From a virus (taxonomy: Duplodnaviria > Heunggongvirae > Uroviricota > Caudoviricetes): a stretch of 13,020 nt of DNA. The notes under the pieces are model-generated. The model saw only the letters and a list, made by a program, of their open reading frames with translations, was not told the origin of the DNA and searched no databases. A program made the position numbers and the translations under genes. How positions within the stretch are numbered: position 1 is the first letter of the stretch; each line of letters begins with the position of its first letter. Shown here one piece after another: positions 693 through 12,837 of the stretch. The stretch lies in IMG/VR virus record IMGVR_UViG_2693429623_000016; one strand, written 5' to 3'.

Positions 693-872
693 GCTGACCT
701 CATTTCCCCTTAACGCCGGGGTGGCGGAACAAAAAACCTGCTGCATAGTTAAAGATTGAACCCTGCCGTCATGTTCTTACGCCTCGGGCTGGCTACTTAA
801 CCCCTGACCACTGTCTGGTAACTCGAAGTATTGCCCTGCATTCTGTGGGGCGGGGTGGGTTGACGCCTGAAA

Positions 873-914
873 CAATAGCATCATTATTTTTTTGATGTAA
901 ATAGCATCGCTATT
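873..914. promoter_or_regulatory. OL-like operator pair with candidate leftward promoter (PL-like)
   Basis: Two 15-bp palindromes: AATAGCATCGCTATT (900-914, perfect arms AATAGC/GCTATT) and AATAGCATCATTATT (874-888). On the minus strand a TTTACA -35-like hexamer (revcomp of 895-900) and a TATTGT -10-like hexamer (revcomp of 873-878), 17 bp apart, overlap the operators. Confidence 0.5.
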
Positions 915-930
915 GTTTTTTGTTGGGGCA

Positions 931-954
931 AGAAAAAACCACCCTAAGGTGGTT
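931..954 (-). terminator. rho-independent terminator after the toxin gene (minus strand)
   Basis: Minus-strand RNA AACCACC-UUAG-GGUGGUU forms a 7-bp stem with a 4-nt loop, followed by a U-rich tract (UUUUUC). It lies 16 bp downstream of the toxin stop codon (971-973). Confidence 0.6.
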
Positions 955-970
955 CTGTCGGCGGGAATAA

Positions 971-1261
971 TTAACTGTTTTTGCCTGGATACTGTCTTCG
1001 AGAATGCACAATATTTACTACTTCTATGCTTGATGCTGTTACTCGGTAAAGGATGATGTAGTTAGGATGAGTTACAATTTCACGAAGACCAAGAACTCGC
1101 TCGCTTGGAGGATACAGGTAAGGATGCTCTGTGAGCGGCAAAACGGATGTTTCAATTCGAATTTTCATTCTGCGTGCTGCCGCGGGATTTTCTTTAGCTA
1201 TGTAGGCTACGATCTGGCGCAAATCATCACGAGCAGATGGTAGCCATAAAACGGGTAACAT
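971..1261 (-). CDS. ParE/RelE-superfamily type II toxin
   Basis: 96-aa ORF with the size and sequence character of ParE/RelE toxins (MLPVLWLPSARDDLRQIVAYI…IILYRV…EVVNIVHSRR). Its start overlaps the stop of the upstream small ORF, the classic antitoxin-toxin arrangement. Assigned from recalled family features, not a search. Confidence 0.7.
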   Translation of the reverse strand: MLPVLWLPSARDDLRQIVAYIAKENPAAARRMKIRIETSVLPLTEHPYLYPPSERVLGLREIVTHPNYIILYRVTASSIEVVNIVHSRRQYPGKNS

Positions 1262-1455
1262 TATTCACCTCTGTGAGTTGCAGCAGCAATTTGGGCAATA
1301 ATTTGTTCCATTTCCGCCATTACCTCATCATGCGGAATCGCCGGGCGGGGATCCGCGAGGCTTGCTGCTACTTTGGCCCGCAGCCATTCGTTGTAACTAT
1401 TTTCTTGCTCAACTGTCTCAAATTCTGAAACCATTGGGGAAAGGACTGTACTCAT
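1261..1455 (-). CDS. type II antitoxin (ParD-like, cognate of downstream ParE-like toxin)
   Basis: 64-aa acidic ORF immediately upstream of and overlapping the toxin gene. A C-terminal segment (EWLRAKVAASLADPRPAIPHDEVMAEMEQII) resembles ParD-type antitoxins. Starts 17 bp after the repressor stop, so probably co-transcribed with the repressor. Confidence 0.6.
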   Translation of the reverse strand: MSTVLSPMVSEFETVEQENSYNEWLRAKVAASLADPRPAIPHDEVMAEMEQIIAQIAAATHRGE

Positions 1456-1474
1456 TTTACATATCTCCTCTGAT

Positions 1475-1975
1475 TTAGGCGCGACGGCCTTTTTGTGCAG
1501 CTAACCACCGCGCAACCGTACGATCCATTGATTCTTTTTTATCTTTCATCTCCTGAAGCATGTGTTCTTGATCTTCTTTCGGAAAAGCTCTGAACGTATG
1601 GATTAAATCTCGTTCCATCGGCTCTACGGCAAACGGTAGTTCATCCTCTGTTTGTTCTGTGTCTGCTGGTAATGCGACTATGTTATCTTGCTGTGGTTCT
1701 CGACAATACATCCTTGCAATTTGCAGCAAATCTACCATGTCTGGCCTGATTGACTCAGGGGGAACTTTCAGTAAGCCAGCAAACTTTAGAACAGCCTCAA
1801 GGTTTAGTGGGGTTTGACCATTTAGGTAGTGACTTACCGCCCCTTGTGTTGAAAACCCCATAATTTCCGCCGCACGTTCCTGAGTCAATCCCAACTGAGA
1901 TTTCTTTGCCATCCAGATTTCTTTCAGTCTTCTGGCGGCGTTGAGGTCGGTGTCTGACAATGATTTTCTTTTCAT
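1475..1975 (-). CDS. prophage repressor, HTH XRE family (RacR/cI-type, no S24 peptidase domain)
   Basis: HTH_XRE-like segment (LTQERAAEIMGFSTQGAVSHYLNGQTPLNLEAVLKFAGL). Transcribed divergently from the Cro-like gene across an operator-containing intergenic region. The ORF is open to a GTG at 2005; the ATG at 1973-1975 was chosen as start. No LexA-like Ser/Lys protease motifs are visible in the C-terminus. Confidence 0.75.
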   Translation of the reverse strand: MKRKSLSDTDLNAARRLKEIWMAKKSQLGLTQERAAEIMGFSTQGAVSHYLNGQTPLNLEAVLKFAGLLKVPPESIRPDMVDLLQIARMYCREPQQDNIVALPADTEQTEDELPFAVEPMERDLIHTFRAFPKEDQEHMLQEMKDKKESMDRTVARWLAAQKGRRA

Positions 1976-2010
1976 ACATCCAATTCTAATAAGATTGCTA
2001 ATCACTTTGA

Positions 2011-2053
2011 AATAGCATCACTATTTACTTTTAAAAATAACAGTGCTATTAAT
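2011..2053. promoter_or_regulatory. OR-like operator pair with candidate rightward promoter (PR-like)
   Basis: Palindromes AATAGCATCACTATT (2011-2025) and AATAACAGTGCTATT (2036-2050) share the half-site with the OL-like sites. Candidate -35 TTTACT (2024-2029), 17-bp spacer, then extended -10 TGcTATTAA (2044-2052), upstream of the Cro-like ATG at 2087. Confidence 0.5.
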
Positions 2054-2086: not shown

Positions 2087-2350
2087 ATGAATCTTGGAGA
2101 ATATTTGCATCATTTTCATATAACCCAGAGTTCATTTGCTGAGATTGTTGGCGCATCCCAAGGGATGGTCAGCCACGTTATAACGGGGCGTGCAAAACTT
2201 ACAGGAGAAAAAATATTACGTTGGTGTGAAGCAACGGGATGGGTGGTGACCCCACATGAGATTGACAGTAAAACCTACCCCAACCCAACTGACGGCTTGC
2301 CTGCTGAGTTTCAGGCTAACACACAACCATCGGCGGGGGTTGATTCATGA
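2087..2350 (+). CDS. Cro-like small HTH protein (YdaS-like)
   Basis: Small ORF divergent from the repressor, with an HTH-like segment (SQGMVSHVITGRAKLTGEKILRWCEATG). An AGGG motif precedes the ATG at 2087; the ORF is open to a TTG at 2060. Its stop overlaps the next gene's start (ATGA at 2347-2350). Confidence 0.65.
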   Translation: MNLGEYLHHFHITQSSFAEIVGASQGMVSHVITGRAKLTGEKILRWCEATGWVVTPHEIDSKTYPNPTDGLPAEFQANTQPSAGVDS

Positions 2351-2772
2351 AAATCAAGCATGAACACATCCGCATGGCGATGAAAGCCTGGGCGCATCCG
2401 GACGGTGAAAAAGTTCCGGCAGCTGAAATAACCAGGGTTTATTTCGAACTGGGAATGACGTTTCCGGTTCTGCATAACGACAGCAAGCACAACACGCTTT
2501 ATCTCAACACCCAAAAGATTTTCCGTTGGCTGGATAAAGACACCCCTGACGCTGTTGAAAAAATTCAGGCGTTGTTACCTGCGATCGAAAGGGCAATGCC
2601 ACCTCCGCTGGTGGCTCGAATGCGCAGCCACAGTTCAGCTTATTTTCGGGAACTGGTGGAGACGCATGAACGACTGGTGAGAGACGCTGATGATTTTGTC
2701 GCAGTGGCAATCGCCGGTTTCAATCAGATGAACCGTGGTGGCCCGGCAGGAAATGCTGTGGCAGTACATTGA
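2347..2772 (+). CDS. YdaT-like protein (occupies the cII position in Rac-type immunity regions)
   Basis: 141-aa ORF beginning MKIKHEHI and ending …AVAVH, which matches my recollection of Rac prophage YdaT termini. Translationally coupled to the Cro-like gene. Assignment rests on recall and synteny only. Confidence 0.55.
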   Translation: MKIKHEHIRMAMKAWAHPDGEKVPAAEITRVYFELGMTFPVLHNDSKHNTLYLNTQKIFRWLDKDTPDAVEKIQALLPAIERAMPPPLVARMRSHSSAYFRELVETHERLVRDADDFVAVAIAGFNQMNRGGPAGNAVAVH

Positions 2773-3914: not shown

Positions 3915-4716
3915 ATGAAAANNNNNNNNNNNNNNNNNNNNNNNNNNNNNNNNNNNNNNNNNNNNNNNNNNNNNNNNNNNNNNNNNNNNNNNNNNNNNNN
4001 NNNNNNNNNNNNNNNNNNNNNNNNNNNNNNNNNNNNNNNNNNNNNNNNNNNNNNNNNNNNNNNNNNNNNNNNNNNNNNNNNNNNNNNNNNNNNNNNNNNN
4101 NNNNNNNNNNNNNNNNNNNNNNNNNNNNNNNNNNNNNNNNNNNNNNNNNNNNNNNNNNNNNNNNNNNNNNNNNNNNNNNNNNNNNNNNNNNNNNNNNNNN
4201 NNNNNNNNNNNNNNNNNNNNNNNNNNNNNNNNNNNNNNNNNNNNNNNNNNNNNNNNNNNNNNNNNNNNNNNNNNNNNNNNNNNNNNNNNNNNNNNNNNNN
4301 NNNNNNNNNNNNNNNNNNNNNNNNNNNNNNNNNNNNNNNNNNNNNNNNNNNNNNNNNNNNNNNNNNNNNNNNNNNNNNNNNNNNNNNNNNNNNNNNNNNN
4401 NNNNNACAGCTACGACAACGGCAAATCCGGTGAAAAATTTTTACAGGAGCTTTGCGGGGTTGATTTGCTGGTCCTGGATGAAATAGGCATTCAGCGGGAG
4501 ACGAAAAACGAGCAGGTGGTATTGCACCAGATAATTGATCGCCGGACAGCATCACTGTGCAGTGTCGGGATGTTAACAAACCTGAATCATGCCGCAATGA
4601 GCACGCTTCTTGGTGAGAGGATTATGGACCGCATGACCATGAACGGTTGTCGGTGGGTGACGTTTAACTGGGATAGCTGGCGTTCAAATGTCAGCTTTCC
4701 GGGAGTTGTGAAGTAA
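3915..4716 (+). CDS. DnaC-like helicase loader, copy A (interior hidden by N-run 3922-4405)
   Basis: ATG at 3915 follows the O-like stop. After the gap the reading frame gives SYDNGKSGEKFLQELCGVDLLVLDEIGIQRETKNEQVVLHQIIDRRTASL…, homologous to the C-terminal half of the intact DnaC-like gene at 5863-6609. Stop TAA at 4714-4716. Confidence 0.7.
3922..4405. other. run of 484 N (assembly gap or masked sequence)
   Basis: Directly visible in the sequence. Confidence 1.
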
Positions 4717-5616: not shown

Positions 5617-5625
5617 NNNNNNNNN

Positions 5626-6623: not shown

Positions 6624-6808
6624 ATGGCGAAACCTTTTACTCCCGAACAGCGGGAAGAACTGAAGACGCGAATTGTGGAACTCGTGCATCAGGACGGTCG
6701 GGTCACGATTCGGCAGTTGTCAGATGAAACAGGTATCAGTCGTGCGTCTGTCGGTCGCTTATGCATGGAACTGGTCGCAAGTGGTGATGTATATAATTCT
6801 GGCTACGG
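6624..6808 (+). CDS. partial CDS: N-terminus of the small wHTH-like phage protein (copy B), cut off by N-run 6809-6819
   Basis: RBS AGGAGGA five nt before the ATG at 6624. Sequence is nearly identical to 7274-7458. Confidence 0.5.
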
Positions 6809-6819
6809 NNNNNNNNNNN

Positions 6820-7259
6820 TTGATGAAATTGGCATTCAGCGCGAGACGAAAAACGAGCAGGTGGTGCTGCACCAGATTGTTGATCGCCGGACAGCGTCGA
6901 TGCGCAGCGTGGGGATGCTGACAAACCTGAACTATGAGGTGATGAAAACANNNNNNNNNNNNNNNNNNNNNNNNNNNNNNNNNNNNNNNNNNNNNNNNNN
7001 NNNNNNNNNNNNNNNNNNNGATGAAATTGGCATTCAGCGCGAGACGAAAAACGAGCAGGTGGTACTGAACCAGATTGTTGATCGCCGGACGGCATCGTTA
7101 CGCGGTGTGGGGATGCTGACAAATATTAACCATGCAGCGATGAATACACTTCTCGGCGAGCGGGTGATGGATCGCATGGTCATGAACGGCGGGCGCTGGG
7201 TGAATTTTAACTGGGAGAGCTGGCGTCCGAATGTTAGCCATTCGAGGGTTGTTAAGTAG
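6820..7259 (+). pseudogene. DnaC-like C-terminal gene fragments (two partial copies flanking N-run 6951-7019)
   Basis: 6820-6950 encodes DEIGIQRETKNEQVVLHQIVDRRTASMRSVGMLTNLNYEVMKT, a variant of the DnaC core. 7020-7259 is near-identical to 6362-6609, the 3' end of DnaC-like copy B. Neither fragment has a 5' part. Confidence 0.5.
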
Positions 7260-7273
7260 TTTCAGGAGGATTT

Positions 7274-7643
7274 ATGGCGAAACCTTTTACTCCCGAACAG
7301 CGGGAAGAACTGAAGACGCGAATTGTGGAACTCGTGCATCAGGACGGTCGGGTCACGATTCGGCAGTTGTCAGATGAAACAGGTATCAGTCGTGCGTCTG
7401 TCGGTCGCTTATGCATAGAACTGGTCGCAAGTGGTGATGTATATAATTCTGGCTACGGGGTATTTCCCTCTGAACAGGCTCATAAAGACTGGCAAAACGC
7501 CCGCAAAAAGCTATCGAGGGTAAAGGTGAAGAAACCGGTTGTGGTTGATCCTGACCTTATCTGGTCATTACCAGACGGAGAAATACGCCGCTACGACAGG
7601 CGCCTGAATATAATCTGTCGCGAGTGCCGGAAGAGCGAAGCTA
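7274..7643 (+). pseudogene. small wHTH-like phage gene (copy B') truncated at its 3' end by the IS element
   Basis: Homology to the copy at 8915-9157 is lost after about position 7645, exactly where the IS terminal sequence (TGAGGT…) begins. The ORF then runs into the IS and ends at 7690. Confidence 0.6.
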
Positions 7644-7686
7644 TGAGGTGTACTGGCAATAGCGGACACTACCATTTGTTCTTTTT

Positions 7687-8592
7687 TTAAGCAGCCATCT
7701 GATGATATTTTTCCCTGAAGGCTGCCGGGGAGATATTCCCCAGACGAGAGTGACGACGCTGACGATTGTAGAAAATCTCAATGTATTCCCGTATTACTGA
7801 GATGGCTTCATCCCGGTTATTAAAACGATAGTGGCTCAGGCTCTCATTTTTCAGCGTTCCCCAGAAGCTTTCCATCGGAGCGTTGTCGTAACAGTTACCT
7901 TTACGCGACATTGATGTTTTCAGACCAGACTGCTCCTGTATGACCCGGTAATCGTATGCGCAGTACTGTGAACCTCGATCAGAGTGGTGGATTAGCCCGG
8001 CAGGTGGGCGCTGGCTCCTGAGCGCCATAAACAGGGCTTTACCTGTCAGCTCTTTTGTCATGCGCTCTCCCATGGCGTAGCCGACAATTTCGCACGTATA
8101 AACATCTTTGATGCCAGCGAGGTACAACCATCCCTCCTGTGTGGCAACATACGTCAGGTCCGCCACCCAGACCTGATTTGGTGCTGTAGGAGCGAACGTC
8201 TGGTTCAGCAGATTTGGCGCAACTGGCAGATTGTGGTTCGAGTTCGTAGTCGCTCTGAACTTGCGTTTCTGCTTACAGCGTAGCCTTAGCTCCTTACGAA
8301 GACGTGCCAGTCGGTCACGACCAACGATGATGCCATTCTCTGCCAGCTCCGTCTGGAGCCGCCGGGTTCCATATGTTTCGCGAGTGCGGATATGTGCCAC
8401 CTTAATCTCCAGTTTTAGCCGCTCATCACTTTGTTTTCTGTCTGAGGGTTCATGCTGTACCCAGTTGTAATAACCGCTCCTGGATACACCAAATACCTGA
8501 CACATCGCTTCAATGGGAAATTGTTGTCGCCATTGTTCGATTAACGCGTATTTTTCAGCGACTCCTGTGCAAAATACGCTGTTGCTTTTTTT
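7687..8592 (-). CDS. IS3-family transposase OrfB (DDE/rve integrase core), expressed as an OrfAB fusion by -1 frameshift
   Basis: DDE integrase-like sequence (…WVADLTYV…HHSDRGSQY…NAPMESFW…). The orfB frame is -1 relative to orfA. Slippery heptamer A_AAA_AAA at 8586-8592 (minus strand) lies within the orfA codons tta-aaa-aaa-gca. Confidence 0.85.
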   Translation of the reverse strand, partial: KKSNSVFCTGVAEKYALIEQWRQQFPIEAMCQVFGVSRSGYYNWVQHEPSDRKQSDERLKLEIKVAHIRTRETYGTRRLQTELAENGIIVGRDRLARLRKELRLRCKQKRKFRATTNSNHNLPVAPNLLNQTFAPTAPNQVWVADLTYVATQEGWLYLAGIKDVYTCEIVGYAMGERMTKELTGKALFMALRSQRPPAGLIHHSDRGSQYCAYDYRVIQEQSGLKTSMSRKGNCYDNAPMESFWGTLKNESLSHYRFNNRDEAISVIREYIEIFYNRQRRHSRLGNISPAAFREKYHQMAA

Positions 8593-8843: not shown

Positions 8844-8914
8844 TATTAGCTCCTTCTGATGCCATTCTATTTCAGGAAGGAGTGTCCGTTAAACTCAGGC
8901 TACCTCANNNNNNN

Positions 8915-9157
8915 TACGGGTTATTCCCGTCTGAACAGGCTCGTAAGGACTGGCAAAACGCCCGCAAAAAACTCTCGAGGGCAAAGCTGAAGAAACCATC
9001 TGTGGTTGATCCGGACCTTATCTGGTCATTACCAGACGGAGAAATACGCCGCTACGACAGGCGCCTGAATATAATCTGTCGCGAGTGCCGGAAGAGTGAA
9101 GTTATGCAGCGTGTACCGGCTTTCTATCAGGGTGATTTTCAGGAGGCGGTACTGTGA
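8915..9157 (+). CDS. partial CDS: C-terminal part of a diverged paralogue of the small wHTH-like phage protein
   Basis: …GLFPSEQARKDWQNARKKLSRAKLKKPSVVDPDLIWSLPDGEIRRYDRRLNIICRECRKSEVMQRVPAFYQGDFQEAVL is about 90% identical to 7459-7643. The 5' part is absent; the sequence resumes directly after N-run 8908-8914. Confidence 0.5.
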   Translation, partial: YGLFPSEQARKDWQNARKKLSRAKLKKPSVVDPDLIWSLPDGEIRRYDRRLNIICRECRKSEVMQRVPAFYQGDFQEAVL

Positions 9158-9785: not shown

Positions 9786-11758
9786 ATGGCCCGCATGTTT
9801 GATACATTAGGATTTTACATTATGAATGTGCAACATTTTGATTTTTTTACAGATAATGAGTTTTCTAATCTGGAAAGATATCAAACTTGTAAAGCCATGG
9901 CCAAAGGTTATGCGGGCAATTACAAAACCGGGCAGTCAAGGTTGATGCATGCCCGCTCATACTGCTTCAGCATCGTAGCTGCATATTGGGATACCCTTGC
10001 AAAAAAGCAAAAAAGCAGCATTAAAATGAGGGCAGTACCGCACACTGTTTACATAGAAGACATTCCATGTGATGCACGCGAGCTCGCTGAACGAACAGGT
10101 GAGCTTATTGCTCAATTTCCGGCGGAGGACGCTGGATATCTGATTGGGTCAATTTATACGGTAATGCTGCCATCCGCTTACCGTTCGGAATTGGGGGCTT
10201 ACTATACCCCCCCACCTTTGGTAGCGCGTCTCTTGGACCTGGCTGAAAAGTCTGGTGTTGATTTTTCTCATGCATCGGTTATTGATCCTGCGTGTGGTGG
10301 CGGTGCATTTTTGGCACCAGTAGCCATTCGAATGTTAAAAAAAGACAAGGGGTCTTCCCCTGAATGGATGTTGAGGAGAATCAGTCGTCGTTTAAAGGGG
10401 ATAGAAATCGATCCATTTGCGGCTTGGATGAGTTTGGTATTGCTCGAATCTGTACTAATGCCACTATGTGTAAAGGTAAAACGTAGATTGCCTGAAGATA
10501 CAATTATTGTTGCTGATGCGCTTCAGCAAGATAAATTTTCTGGTTATGATCTTGTGGTAGGGAATCCGCCTTACGGACGTGTCACTCTCGATATTAAAAC
10601 GAGAGAAAAATATTCTCGTTCGTTATTTGGTCATGCAAATCTATATGGATTGTTCACCGACTTAGCTGTTCGCATGGTTAAANNNNNNNNNNNNNNNNNN
10701 NNNNNNNNNNNNNNNNNNNNNNNNNNNNNNNNNNNNNNNNNNNNNNNNNNNNNNNNNNNNNNNNNNNNNNNNNNNNNNNNNNNNNNNNNNNNNNNNNNNN
10801 NNNNNNNNNNNNNNNNNNNNNNNNNNNNNNNNNNNNNNNNNNNNNNNNNNNNNNNNNNNNNNNNNNNNNNNNNNNNNNNNNNNNNNNNNNNNNNNNNNNN
10901 NNNNNNNNNNNNNNNNNNNNNNNNNNNNNNNNNNNNNNNNNNNNNNNNNNNNNNNNNNNNNNNNNNNNNNNNNNNNNNNNNNNNNNNNNNNNNNNNNNNN
11001 NNNNNNNNNNNNNNNNNNNNNNNNNNNNNNNNNNNNNNNNNNNNNNNNNNNNNNNNNNNNNNNNNNNNNNNNNNNNNNNNNNNNNNNNNNNNNNNNNNNN
11101 NNNNNNNNNNNNNNNNNNNNNNNNNNNNNNNNNNNNNNCCTGTTTTCTTAATGTATTAAAACAGATGTCTACGCGTTTAGCTGATCTGGGATACTCAGTC
11201 TCTACAGGTCAGTTAGTCTGGAATCGATTTAAGTCGCAGTTGCGTACGACGAAAGGAAAAAATAGCTACCCATTAGTCTGGGCGGAATCAATAACTTCAG
11301 CTGGTTTTCGTTTTAGTGCAGACAGAAAAAATCATGTTCCCTATATCGATATAACCCCACAACAGGGTTTCCTTGTGACAAAATCTGAATGTGTGCTTGT
11401 TCAGCGGACAACATCGAAGGAACAGGACAGAAGGATTTTAGCGGCAATTTTACCTCAGGGATTTATAGATGAAACTGGTGGCGTAGTAGTTGAAAACCAT
11501 ATTAATATTGTATATTCAAACGGATTGTTCTCTGCGGTTCGCCCTGATGTTATTGATATGCTACTTAATTCGCATGTTGTCGATCGGGCGTTCAGGTGTA
11601 TAAGCGGAAGTGTTGCTGTTTCGGCCTATGAATTGAATTCAATCCCGTTGCCTTCTCTGGAGCAGGTGATGGAGATTCAATCGTTAATTGATGCTGGCGT
11701 CCACAGACGGATTATTGAGAGAACTATCGCTGGTTTCTATGGAGTGATGATTGCATGA
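9786..11758 (+). CDS. N6-adenine DNA methyltransferase, gamma class (Eco57I/TaqI-like catalytic domain plus C-terminal target-recognition domain); middle hidden by N-run 10683-11138
   Basis: Motif X-like GAYYTPPPLVARLL, motif I DPACGGGAFL and motif IV VVGNPPYG occur in that order. After the N-run the frame is open back to the gap and encodes a TRD-like region (LADLGYSVSTGQLVWNR … AYELNSIPLP). The two halves are in different frames relative to the N count, so gene continuity is inferred rather than seen. Confidence 0.75.
10683..11138. other. run of 456 N inside the methyltransferase gene (assembly gap or masked)
   Basis: Directly visible in the sequence. Confidence 1.
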
Positions 11759-12837
11759 ATCTGCCTGTTGTTCCCCCATTGAATGTTATCCGGGAAAGAT
11801 TACAATTAATTTTCCCTGAAGGGACTGAGAATCGTGGATATTTAATTCGGGAAATAGCTGCAAAAACAATTTTTGTCATGTTTTATGCTGGTGCGGTTGA
11901 GGGGCTGGGGCGATGGATAAGGCCCAGCCAGGTTGTAAGTATGGGAGATTCGCAGGCTGCTCTTACTGATGATGCGTCCAGAGAAAGCTGGGTAAAGATG
12001 ACTTTCTCTAAACAAAAGATAAGGCCTGCTGATGCATGGTATGCGGAAAATACGCGTGAGCCAATACGTGATGAAACTATAAAAAATGGCCTAATACCTT
12101 GCAATGCAATTGTTGAGCGTAAAGGTATACCCACCACATCCTCTCGTCCTCGTTACAGTTTGAATCGCTCTTTTGCAGCACTCTTTGATGCCGGGCTTGA
12201 AGGAGATTCGCTGCTGAGTGCAATAAGTTCCTGGCAAGAAAATCATTTGAACAAAGCCGCTCTTGCTAGGTTGCGTTTATTGAAATCAGGGGCAGTGATT
12301 GCTGCTGATGCCGTAGTCGTCACTTTCCCAAATGGAGAGAAGAGAACTTTAGCTCCGGGCCCGTCAAGTACAATAGCTAAGGCCGTCATCGAAGTTTTTG
12401 CTCCTAATTTTCTTAAGAATCCAACTGTGCTCTGGTTGTCTGAATCCGGGAATAAAGTTGTTGCTCAGGATGATGTATTGGCAAAAGCATTGGGGCTGAA
12501 TATTGATGCCTCAAAAGCACTTCCAGATATTATTTTGATTGATTTGGGAGAGGACCGAACGGGTTCGGACATGCTTGTAGTTTTCACTGAAGTAGTTGCG
12601 ACAGATGGGCCTATAAACAGGGAACGAAAAGTTACTCTCACTCATTTGGCTATTGACGCTGGGTTCAGCGAGAAAAATCTTGCATTCCTTACGGCATTTA
12701 TGGACAGAAGTGCTCTGCCTTTTAAAAAGGCAATACCAGAATTGGCGTGGGGATCTTATGCATGGTTTGCTTCTGAACCGGAGCACTTAATTGATCTTCG
12801 GGATGGTTATCCGGTAAAGATCAGCCAGAGAAAATGA
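11755..12837 (+). CDS. putative Type II restriction endonuclease (BsuBI/PstI-like?), partner of the methyltransferase
   Basis: 360-aa ORF whose ATG overlaps the methyltransferase stop (ATGA at 11755-11758). N-terminal segment IFPEG…AAKTIFVMFYAGAV…AENTREPIRDE resembles what I recall of BsuBI/PstI-family nucleases, which typically pair with Eco57I-type methyltransferases. No canonical PD-(D/E)xK motif was confidently identified. Confidence 0.5.
   Translation: MNLPVVPPLNVIRERLQLIFPEGTENRGYLIREIAAKTIFVMFYAGAVEGLGRWIRPSQVVSMGDSQAALTDDASRESWVKMTFSKQKIRPADAWYAENTREPIRDETIKNGLIPCNAIVERKGIPTTSSRPRYSLNRSFAALFDAGLEGDSLLSAISSWQENHLNKAALARLRLLKSGAVIAADAVVVTFPNGEKRTLAPGPSSTIAKAVIEVFAPNFLKNPTVLWLSESGNKVVAQDDVLAKALGLNIDASKALPDIILIDLGEDRTGSDMLVVFTEVVATDGPINRERKVTLTHLAIDAGFSEKNLAFLTAFMDRSALPFKKAIPELAWGSYAWFASEPEHLIDLRDGYPVKISQRK

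Follow-up and report, generated by a model that had tools for sequence, protein, structure and literature searches.

In lambda, 434 and P22 the repressor and Cro share their operators. The lambda operator is TATCACCGCCAGTGGTA; those of 434 and P22 are ACAA-N6-TTGT and an 18-bp site, and in these two phages repressor and Cro belong to one helix-turn-helix class, with near-identical recognition helices and one shared operator set. A further switch is that of the cryptic prophage CP-933P (Sp12) of E. coli O157:H7, in which paaR2-paaA2-parE2 and ydaS-ydaT come with right and left operators (OR and OL) and the promoters PRM, PR, PL and PRE (PMC8630535, PMC9986795). There PaaR2, which octamerises, and YdaS both footprint the intergenic OR region, and each represses about 100-fold a reporter-verified PL located beyond parE2; YdaT activates the PRE promoter, and leaderless paaR2 and cI mRNAs are documented (PMC8630535). 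The YdaT binding site is TTGATT-N6-AATCAA, located where ydaS ends (PMC9986795). Here we describe the immunity region of a 13,020-nt viral sequence (Caudoviricetes; IMG/VR record IMGVR_UViG_2693429623_000016), hereafter the window, in which a repressor gene and a toxin-antitoxin pair are flanked by short palindromes.

These palindromes are very probably the left and right operators (two in OL, two strong and one weak in OR) of a lambda-type bistable prophage switch. The operator reading, which had been put forward in an earlier note on this DNA, is supported by all the computational tests applied: position, promoter overlap, and co-occurrence with a DNA-binding domain. The immunity specificity of the window is new, but the kind of switch has been described before and the mechanism is not novel.

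Gene order and orientation are those of CP-933P. A leftward operon runs from the repressor through a PaaA2-family antitoxin and a ParE-family toxin to a terminator, and is divergent from a cro-like gene (at the position of ydaS) and ydaT, downstream of which lie replication genes. Identity to the CP-933P proteins is 75% for PaaA2 (over 56 aa), 67% for ParE2 and 77% for YdaT. A perfect YdaT operator lies at the cro/ydaT junction, across the stop of the one gene and the start of the other, as published for ydaS/ydaT; by analogy with CP-933P, the repressor operon should then also have a PRE-type promoter. The cro-like protein, in contrast, is just 25% identical to YdaS, and the repressor shares with PaaR2 only its C-terminus (the last 44 aa), the DNA-binding domains being unrelated. 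The OR sequences are entirely different: CP-933P has four 18-bp palindromes of consensus GTTTAGTAA (PMC8630535), whereas the window has 15-bp sites, AATAGC-N3-GCTATT, of which none occurs in the CP-933P locus (L004). Since the operator sequences differ, the window prophage and CP-933P should be heteroimmune.

On the left there is a conserved flank whose end, ...GGGGTGGGTTG, is common to the window, CP-933P and another locus, L011; immunity-specific DNA with OL starts right after it. The OL pair thus takes the same position as the verified PL/OL of CP-933P. To the left of the pair lie a leader of about 115 bp (747-861) and a DUF1391/ydfA-like gene; the leader, which runs from PL to that gene, is conserved over all three immunity types (window, L004 and L011). 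No Rfam family matched the window, this leader included. The sharp end of the leader marks the immunity cassette's recombination boundary on the left.

The earlier note had placed four palindromes in pairs on both sides of the repressor/toxin-antitoxin block, and a mismatch search of the window (query AATAGCNNNGCTATT; at most two mismatches allowed) recovers all four, at the same coordinates and flanking the leftward operon. Five matches were found in the window where 0.45 were expected, a count that none of 200 dinucleotide-preserving shuffles reached. Further copies, for which the note had advised a search, come down in the window to a single stray match with two mismatches (7631-7645), which we rejected as chance: its invariant core is broken and it is not among the top weight-matrix scores. 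Sites do recur in related loci. A weight matrix trained solely on 20 sites taken from other loci gives the four window sites 19.1-22.2 bits, against 6.1 for the next best window position; its maxima over 100 shuffles had a mean of 8.8, a 95th percentile of 14.0 and a top value of 18.7.

The consensus itself has to be narrowed. Sites of the form AATAGC-N3-GCTATT are present as claimed, but the truly conserved core is only AATA-N7-TATT, the inner two positions of each half-site favouring G/A and then C/T. An alignment of seven loci shows no variation in any of the 16 AATA/TATT core columns of OR1 and OR2, compared with 13 invariant columns among the 66 others; the central triplets are free to vary, and the two sites are centred 25 bp apart in all seven. 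The repressor and cro-like genes diverge from a gap of 111 bp (1976-2086), which contains several imperfect palindromes of one consensus, two strong and one weak, and no other repeated motif. The weak one, a candidate OR3 missed by the earlier note, is not significant taken alone; the equivalent position holds a site in the loci of all relatives (AATAGTTTTACTAAT in L005, L007 and L009).

Loci were fetched for each repressor architecture and then scanned for sites. Those with the DNA-binding domain of the window repressor make up eight further lineages (L001-L003, L005/6, L007/8, L009/10, L013 and L014). AATA-N7-TATT sites lie between repressor and cro in 8/8, in pairs 24-25 bp apart, and L014, a distant relative, has three clear sites there. 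A second pair past the repressor operon was found in all six lineages with contigs long enough, and OL1 has a counterpart at the same position in L001-L003, L005, L007 and L009. The sites persist with PaaA2/ParE, with HigB/HigA, with a HipA-like gene plus DUF3037 or with no cargo at all, and across four different repressor C-terminal regions. As negative controls we used CP-933P and L011/L012, two switches that match the window in PaaA2/ParE, YdaT and the conserved left flank and differ from it in the DNA-binding domain; no sites of the AATA-N7-TATT type were found in OR or OL of either. The motif tracks the DNA-binding domain, not cargo, tail or flanks, and the cro-like protein tracks the motif too, orthologues 61-85% identical accompanying it in the other loci.

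Table 1. Operators, promoters, terminator and genes of the switch region, in window order
Feature	Position	Strand	Sequence or details
PL-like promoter	872-901	-	TTTACA (901-896), extended -10 TGcTATTGT (-10 at 877-872); promoter scan and direct reading
OL1	874-888		AATAGCATCATTATT; 2 mismatches; 19.1 bits; overlaps -10 of PL
OL2	900-914		AATAGCATCGCTATT; 0 mismatches, perfect palindrome; 22.2 bits; 2-bp overlap with PL -35
Intrinsic terminator	930-956	-	9-pair hairpin and U run; fold -15.1 kcal/mol, z-score -2.9
ParE-family toxin gene	971-1261	-	96 aa; Pfam ParE_toxin, E 1.8e-17
PaaA2-family antitoxin gene	1261-1455	-	64 aa; Pfam PaaA2, E 3e-23
Repressor gene	1475-1975	-	166 aa; HTH_3 (Pfam); lambda-CI-type N-terminal domain, disordered linker, PaaR2-type C-terminal 44 aa
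PRM-like promoter	1983-2011	-	TTCAAA (2011-2006), 17-bp spacer, TAGAAT (1988-1983); promoter scan and direct reading
Candidate OR3	1988-2002		AATAAGATTGCTAAT; 3 mismatches; 5.1 bits; inside PRM core
OR2	2011-2025		AATAGCATCACTATT; 1 mismatch; 22.0 bits; 2-bp overlap with PR -35; abuts PRM -35
PR-like promoter	2024-2052	+	TTTACT (2024-2029), TGcTATTAA (2044-2052); read directly
OR1	2036-2050		AATAACAGTGCTATT; 1 mismatch; 21.6 bits; overlaps extended -10 of PR
cro-like gene	2087-2350	+	87 aa; HTH_3, E 4e-4, under Pfam cut-off
YdaT operator	2340-2357		TTGATTCATGAAAATCAA; perfect copy
ydaT gene (CII equivalent)	2347-2772	+	141 aa; Pfam YdaT_toxin; E 3e-70 to PDB 8bt1

At PR and PL the sites overlap both the -35 and the -10, and they flank PRM; all three promoters are consensus matches only. 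For both early promoters the earlier note had given hexamers with 17-bp spacing; direct reading bears this out for PR, but the PL spacer is 18 bp. OR1 takes in the TG of the extended PR -10 together with the first four -10 bases, and PL is directed left, toward the DUF1391/ydfA-like gene. In PRM, which the note lacked, the -10 is followed by 7 nt and then the repressor ATG; a leaderless repressor mRNA is therefore predicted, like that of paaR2 in CP-933P. The terminator stands 15 nt past the parE stop codon, where it ends the repressor-antitoxin-toxin operon, and a similar hairpin is present in L001-L003.

The repressor begins as a lambda-CI-type protein. Its residues 2-81 are homologous to the N-terminal domain of lambda CI, a helix-turn-helix domain of five helices (phmmer, E 3e-9; about 39% identity), with a basic arm, MKRKSL, that compares with STKKKPL in lambda. 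An AlphaFold model has a pLDDT (predicted local distance difference test) score of 85-93 over residues 11-80, and Foldseek aligns it to lambda cI N-terminal domain structures with target TM-scores of 0.81-0.93, 37-40% identity and a root mean square deviation of 1.1-2.0 Å. Within the recognition helix T43-Y50 and N52 are invariant in 18 repressor homologues. Residues 93-112 are predicted to be disordered and 119-165 to form a short and a long helix; residues 123-166 match PaaR2 80-123 (52% identity, E 5e-15). Pfam finds no Peptidase_S24 match in the protein, so that induction would not proceed by RecA-stimulated self-cleavage. A 176-aa version from a GTG start was ruled out, since RefSeq annotates 166 aa and the lambda CI homology starts at residue 2; that reading would also extend through OR3 into PRM.

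Homologue searches point to a modular family, in which the same DNA-binding domain is joined to differing C-terminal parts: the PaaR-type tail of the window (166 aa), a second helix-turn-helix followed by a PaaR-type tail (244-255 aa), a variant tail in Salmonella diarizonae (154 aa), and unrelated tails in two metagenomic contigs. The PaaR-type tail for its part is found on the lambda-CI-type domain, on another type of helix-turn-helix (in 132-aa proteins) and on a tandem of the two (244-255 aa), and PaaR2 bears this 44-residue tail on its own DNA-binding domain. The tandem form is that of the L007-L010 repressors (P0013-P0023), whose first domain is lambda-CI-type, as in the window, and whose second is the one that the widespread 132-aa repressors carry. 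The OR regions of L007-L010 have AATA-N7-TATT sites only; AAGTGT-N7-ACACTT, a candidate palindrome of the second helix-turn-helix type that derives from L011, was not found in OR of the loci encoding 244-255-aa proteins. Possibly, although we hold this with less than even confidence, the 44-residue C-terminus is a portable oligomerisation module that phages join to interchangeable DNA-binding domains.

In the switch as we propose it, the 166-aa repressor would read the half-site AATAG(C/T) through its lambda-CI-type helix-turn-helix. Dimers on OR1 and OR2 would cover the -10 and -35 of PR, and dimers on OL1 and OL2 those of PL, so that both early operons would be off. At OR2, which abuts the -35 of PRM just where lambda CI sits when it activates its own promoter, the repressor may activate PRM, and the weak OR3 would cap repressor synthesis at high concentration. 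Transcription from PRM is predicted to start at the repressor ATG or one base before it, giving the leaderless mRNA, and to run on through the antitoxin and toxin genes to the terminator, whose end is 29 bp short of the PL -35. The PaaR2-like last 44 residues probably make binding cooperative and allow OL and OR, about 1.1 kb apart, to loop together. The cro-like protein would be expected to compete for the operators, and YdaT would act at its own site to drive a PRE-type promoter.

Much of this layout is shared with lambda. The centre-to-centre spacing is alike (OR3-OR2 23 bp, OR2-OR1 25 bp and OL1-OL2 26 bp), as are the placing of OR1 and OR2 over PR, of OR2 against the PRM -35 and of a weak OR3 within PRM. 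The predicted leaderless repressor mRNA and the co-transcription of accessory genes with the repressor (rexAB in lambda) are further likenesses. The operator sequence, however, differs from that of lambda; the repressor is without the S24 peptidase or RecA-cleavable C-terminal domain; two OL sites are detectable in the window against three in lambda; the cro-like protein is an XRE-type helix-turn-helix and not of the lambda Cro fold; and YdaT fills the role of CII. With 434 and P22, from which the operator sequences again differ and whose repressors have a LexA-type cleavable domain, the locus shares near-identical helices in its two regulators: TQGAVSHYLNG in the repressor and SQGMVSHVITG in the cro-like protein. 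The cro-like protein probably reads the same sites as the repressor, to judge by this resemblance.

It might be, all the same, that the sites serve the cro-like protein alone and that the 166-aa repressor binds something else. In every lineage the motif does come with the cro-like protein, whose helix is conserved as (S/T)QGx(V/I)SH; the repressor recognition helix, however, is equally invariant and has nearly the same sequence, the 111-bp gap offers no other repeated motif to bind, and repressor and Cro share operators in CP-933P (PMC8630535). We consider this division of labour unlikely. No more credible is that the palindromes are the by-product of one promoter cassette present in two copies. 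PL and PR do share TATTTAC...TGCTATT and align as units of about 42 bp; GCTATT, the right half-site, includes the TG and first four -10 bases, and the -35 overlaps the end of a site. Such a cassette would leave unexplained that the left half-sites (AATAG) lie outside the hexamers and are yet invariant, and that the dyad symmetry is held in nine lineages while the promoter spacers diverge; moreover the motif tracks the DNA-binding domain and not the promoters, and switches with other repressors carry a different sequence at this place.

Most type II toxin-antitoxin operons are autoregulated through promoter palindromes (PMC8630535 and general knowledge), which raises binding by the antitoxin-toxin complex as an explanation. 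The distribution of the sites makes it very improbable: they remain where the cargo is HigBA, HipA-like or absent, and are absent where PaaA2/ParE sits with another repressor. Besides, Pfam finds in the 64-aa PaaA2-type antitoxin only the 33-residue PaaA2 motif, and in CP-933P it is PaaR2 that carries out the regulation. Chance palindromes, or sites of a host nucleoid protein, would suit intergenic DNA that is AT-rich, but we give them next to no weight, given the shuffled count, the weight-matrix scores above all 100 shuffle maxima, and the conservation of positions and spacing across lineages.

Several points weigh against the operator reading or parts of it. The motif co-varies with the cro-like protein as much as with the repressor, and the comparison of loci therefore cannot tell which of them binds, or whether both do. 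PR falls below the threshold of a stricter promoter scan, because the last base of its -10 is A. OR3 is weak, and its conservation could reflect PRM alone. Oligomerisation by the tail we infer from the identity to PaaR2 given above. Finally, the prophage is decayed, with an IS1 end and an IS3-family insertion, and there may be no lytic programme left for the switch to control.

Around the switch, positions 1-30 of the window are the terminal 30 bp of IS1, a stretch that recurs some 49,000 times across E. coli genomes, where the annotations read IS1 transposase. With this IS1 end at its start, the window has an early-left operon truncated by insertion. A 125-aa open reading frame (ORF) without Pfam match (163-540, - strand) lies where a 99%-identical E. 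coli relative (L001) has ydfB/ydfC. An IS3-family transposase with rve domains (7687-8505, - strand) stands among three DUF977 fragments (6624-7259, 7274-7690 and 8882-9157), and it looks like the insertion split or duplicated a DUF977 gene. A gene for a BsuBI/PstI-type restriction endonuclease (11755-12837) follows two ORFs, one of 457 aa (9786-11159; N masks part of it) and one of 197 aa; the stretch 9786-12837 is probably restriction-modification cargo in the early-right region. Sequence masked as runs of N (3922-4405, 5617-5625, 6809-6819, 6951-7019, 8908-8914 and 10683-11138) breaks several ORFs, and the region of the replication-initiator-like gene is affected at its end.

As to the likely host, Shigella sonnei is on record as a source of the exact repressor protein. 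The 1.7-kb region is covered to at least 80% in 72 of 5,426 genomes; it is about 99% identical in two complete E. coli genomes and about 80-82% identical in the others listed. The immunity type occurs in prophages of Shigella sonnei, E. coli (including the O104:H4 lineage), E. albertii and Salmonella diarizonae. It was not found in the sequenced phages of the collection searched, where a protein search gave no repressor relative above 60% identity, the best match being lambda cI at 31%, and a near-identity DNA search of the same collection gave conserved flanks only (13% of the query). A scan of species-representative genomes with the single repressor protein found no relative. The operator sequences were not found in the literature searched, nor did searches on the RefSeq accessions or the name paaR-paaA-parE turn up anything relevant.

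The analysis supplies a putative DNA target, AATAG(C/T)-N3-(G/A)CTATT with core AATA-N7-TATT, for an uncharacterised immunity type, and a predicted heteroimmune partner to CP-933P that has the same toxin-antitoxin cargo and a different repressor. Such a pair would be useful for asking if a toxin-antitoxin pair inside an immunity operon stabilises the region. The repressor appears to be a natural domain swap, with a lambda-CI DNA-binding domain set on a non-cleavable, putatively oligomerising tail; the mechanism itself is textbook. If the C-terminus is indeed a portable module, the window would hold a natural hybrid of the lambda-CI DNA-binding domain and the PaaR C-terminus, working as an OL-OR looping switch with an unrecorded specificity, AATA-N7-TATT, and no RecA-dependent cleavage, and its induction would depend on Cro bistability or an antirepressor.

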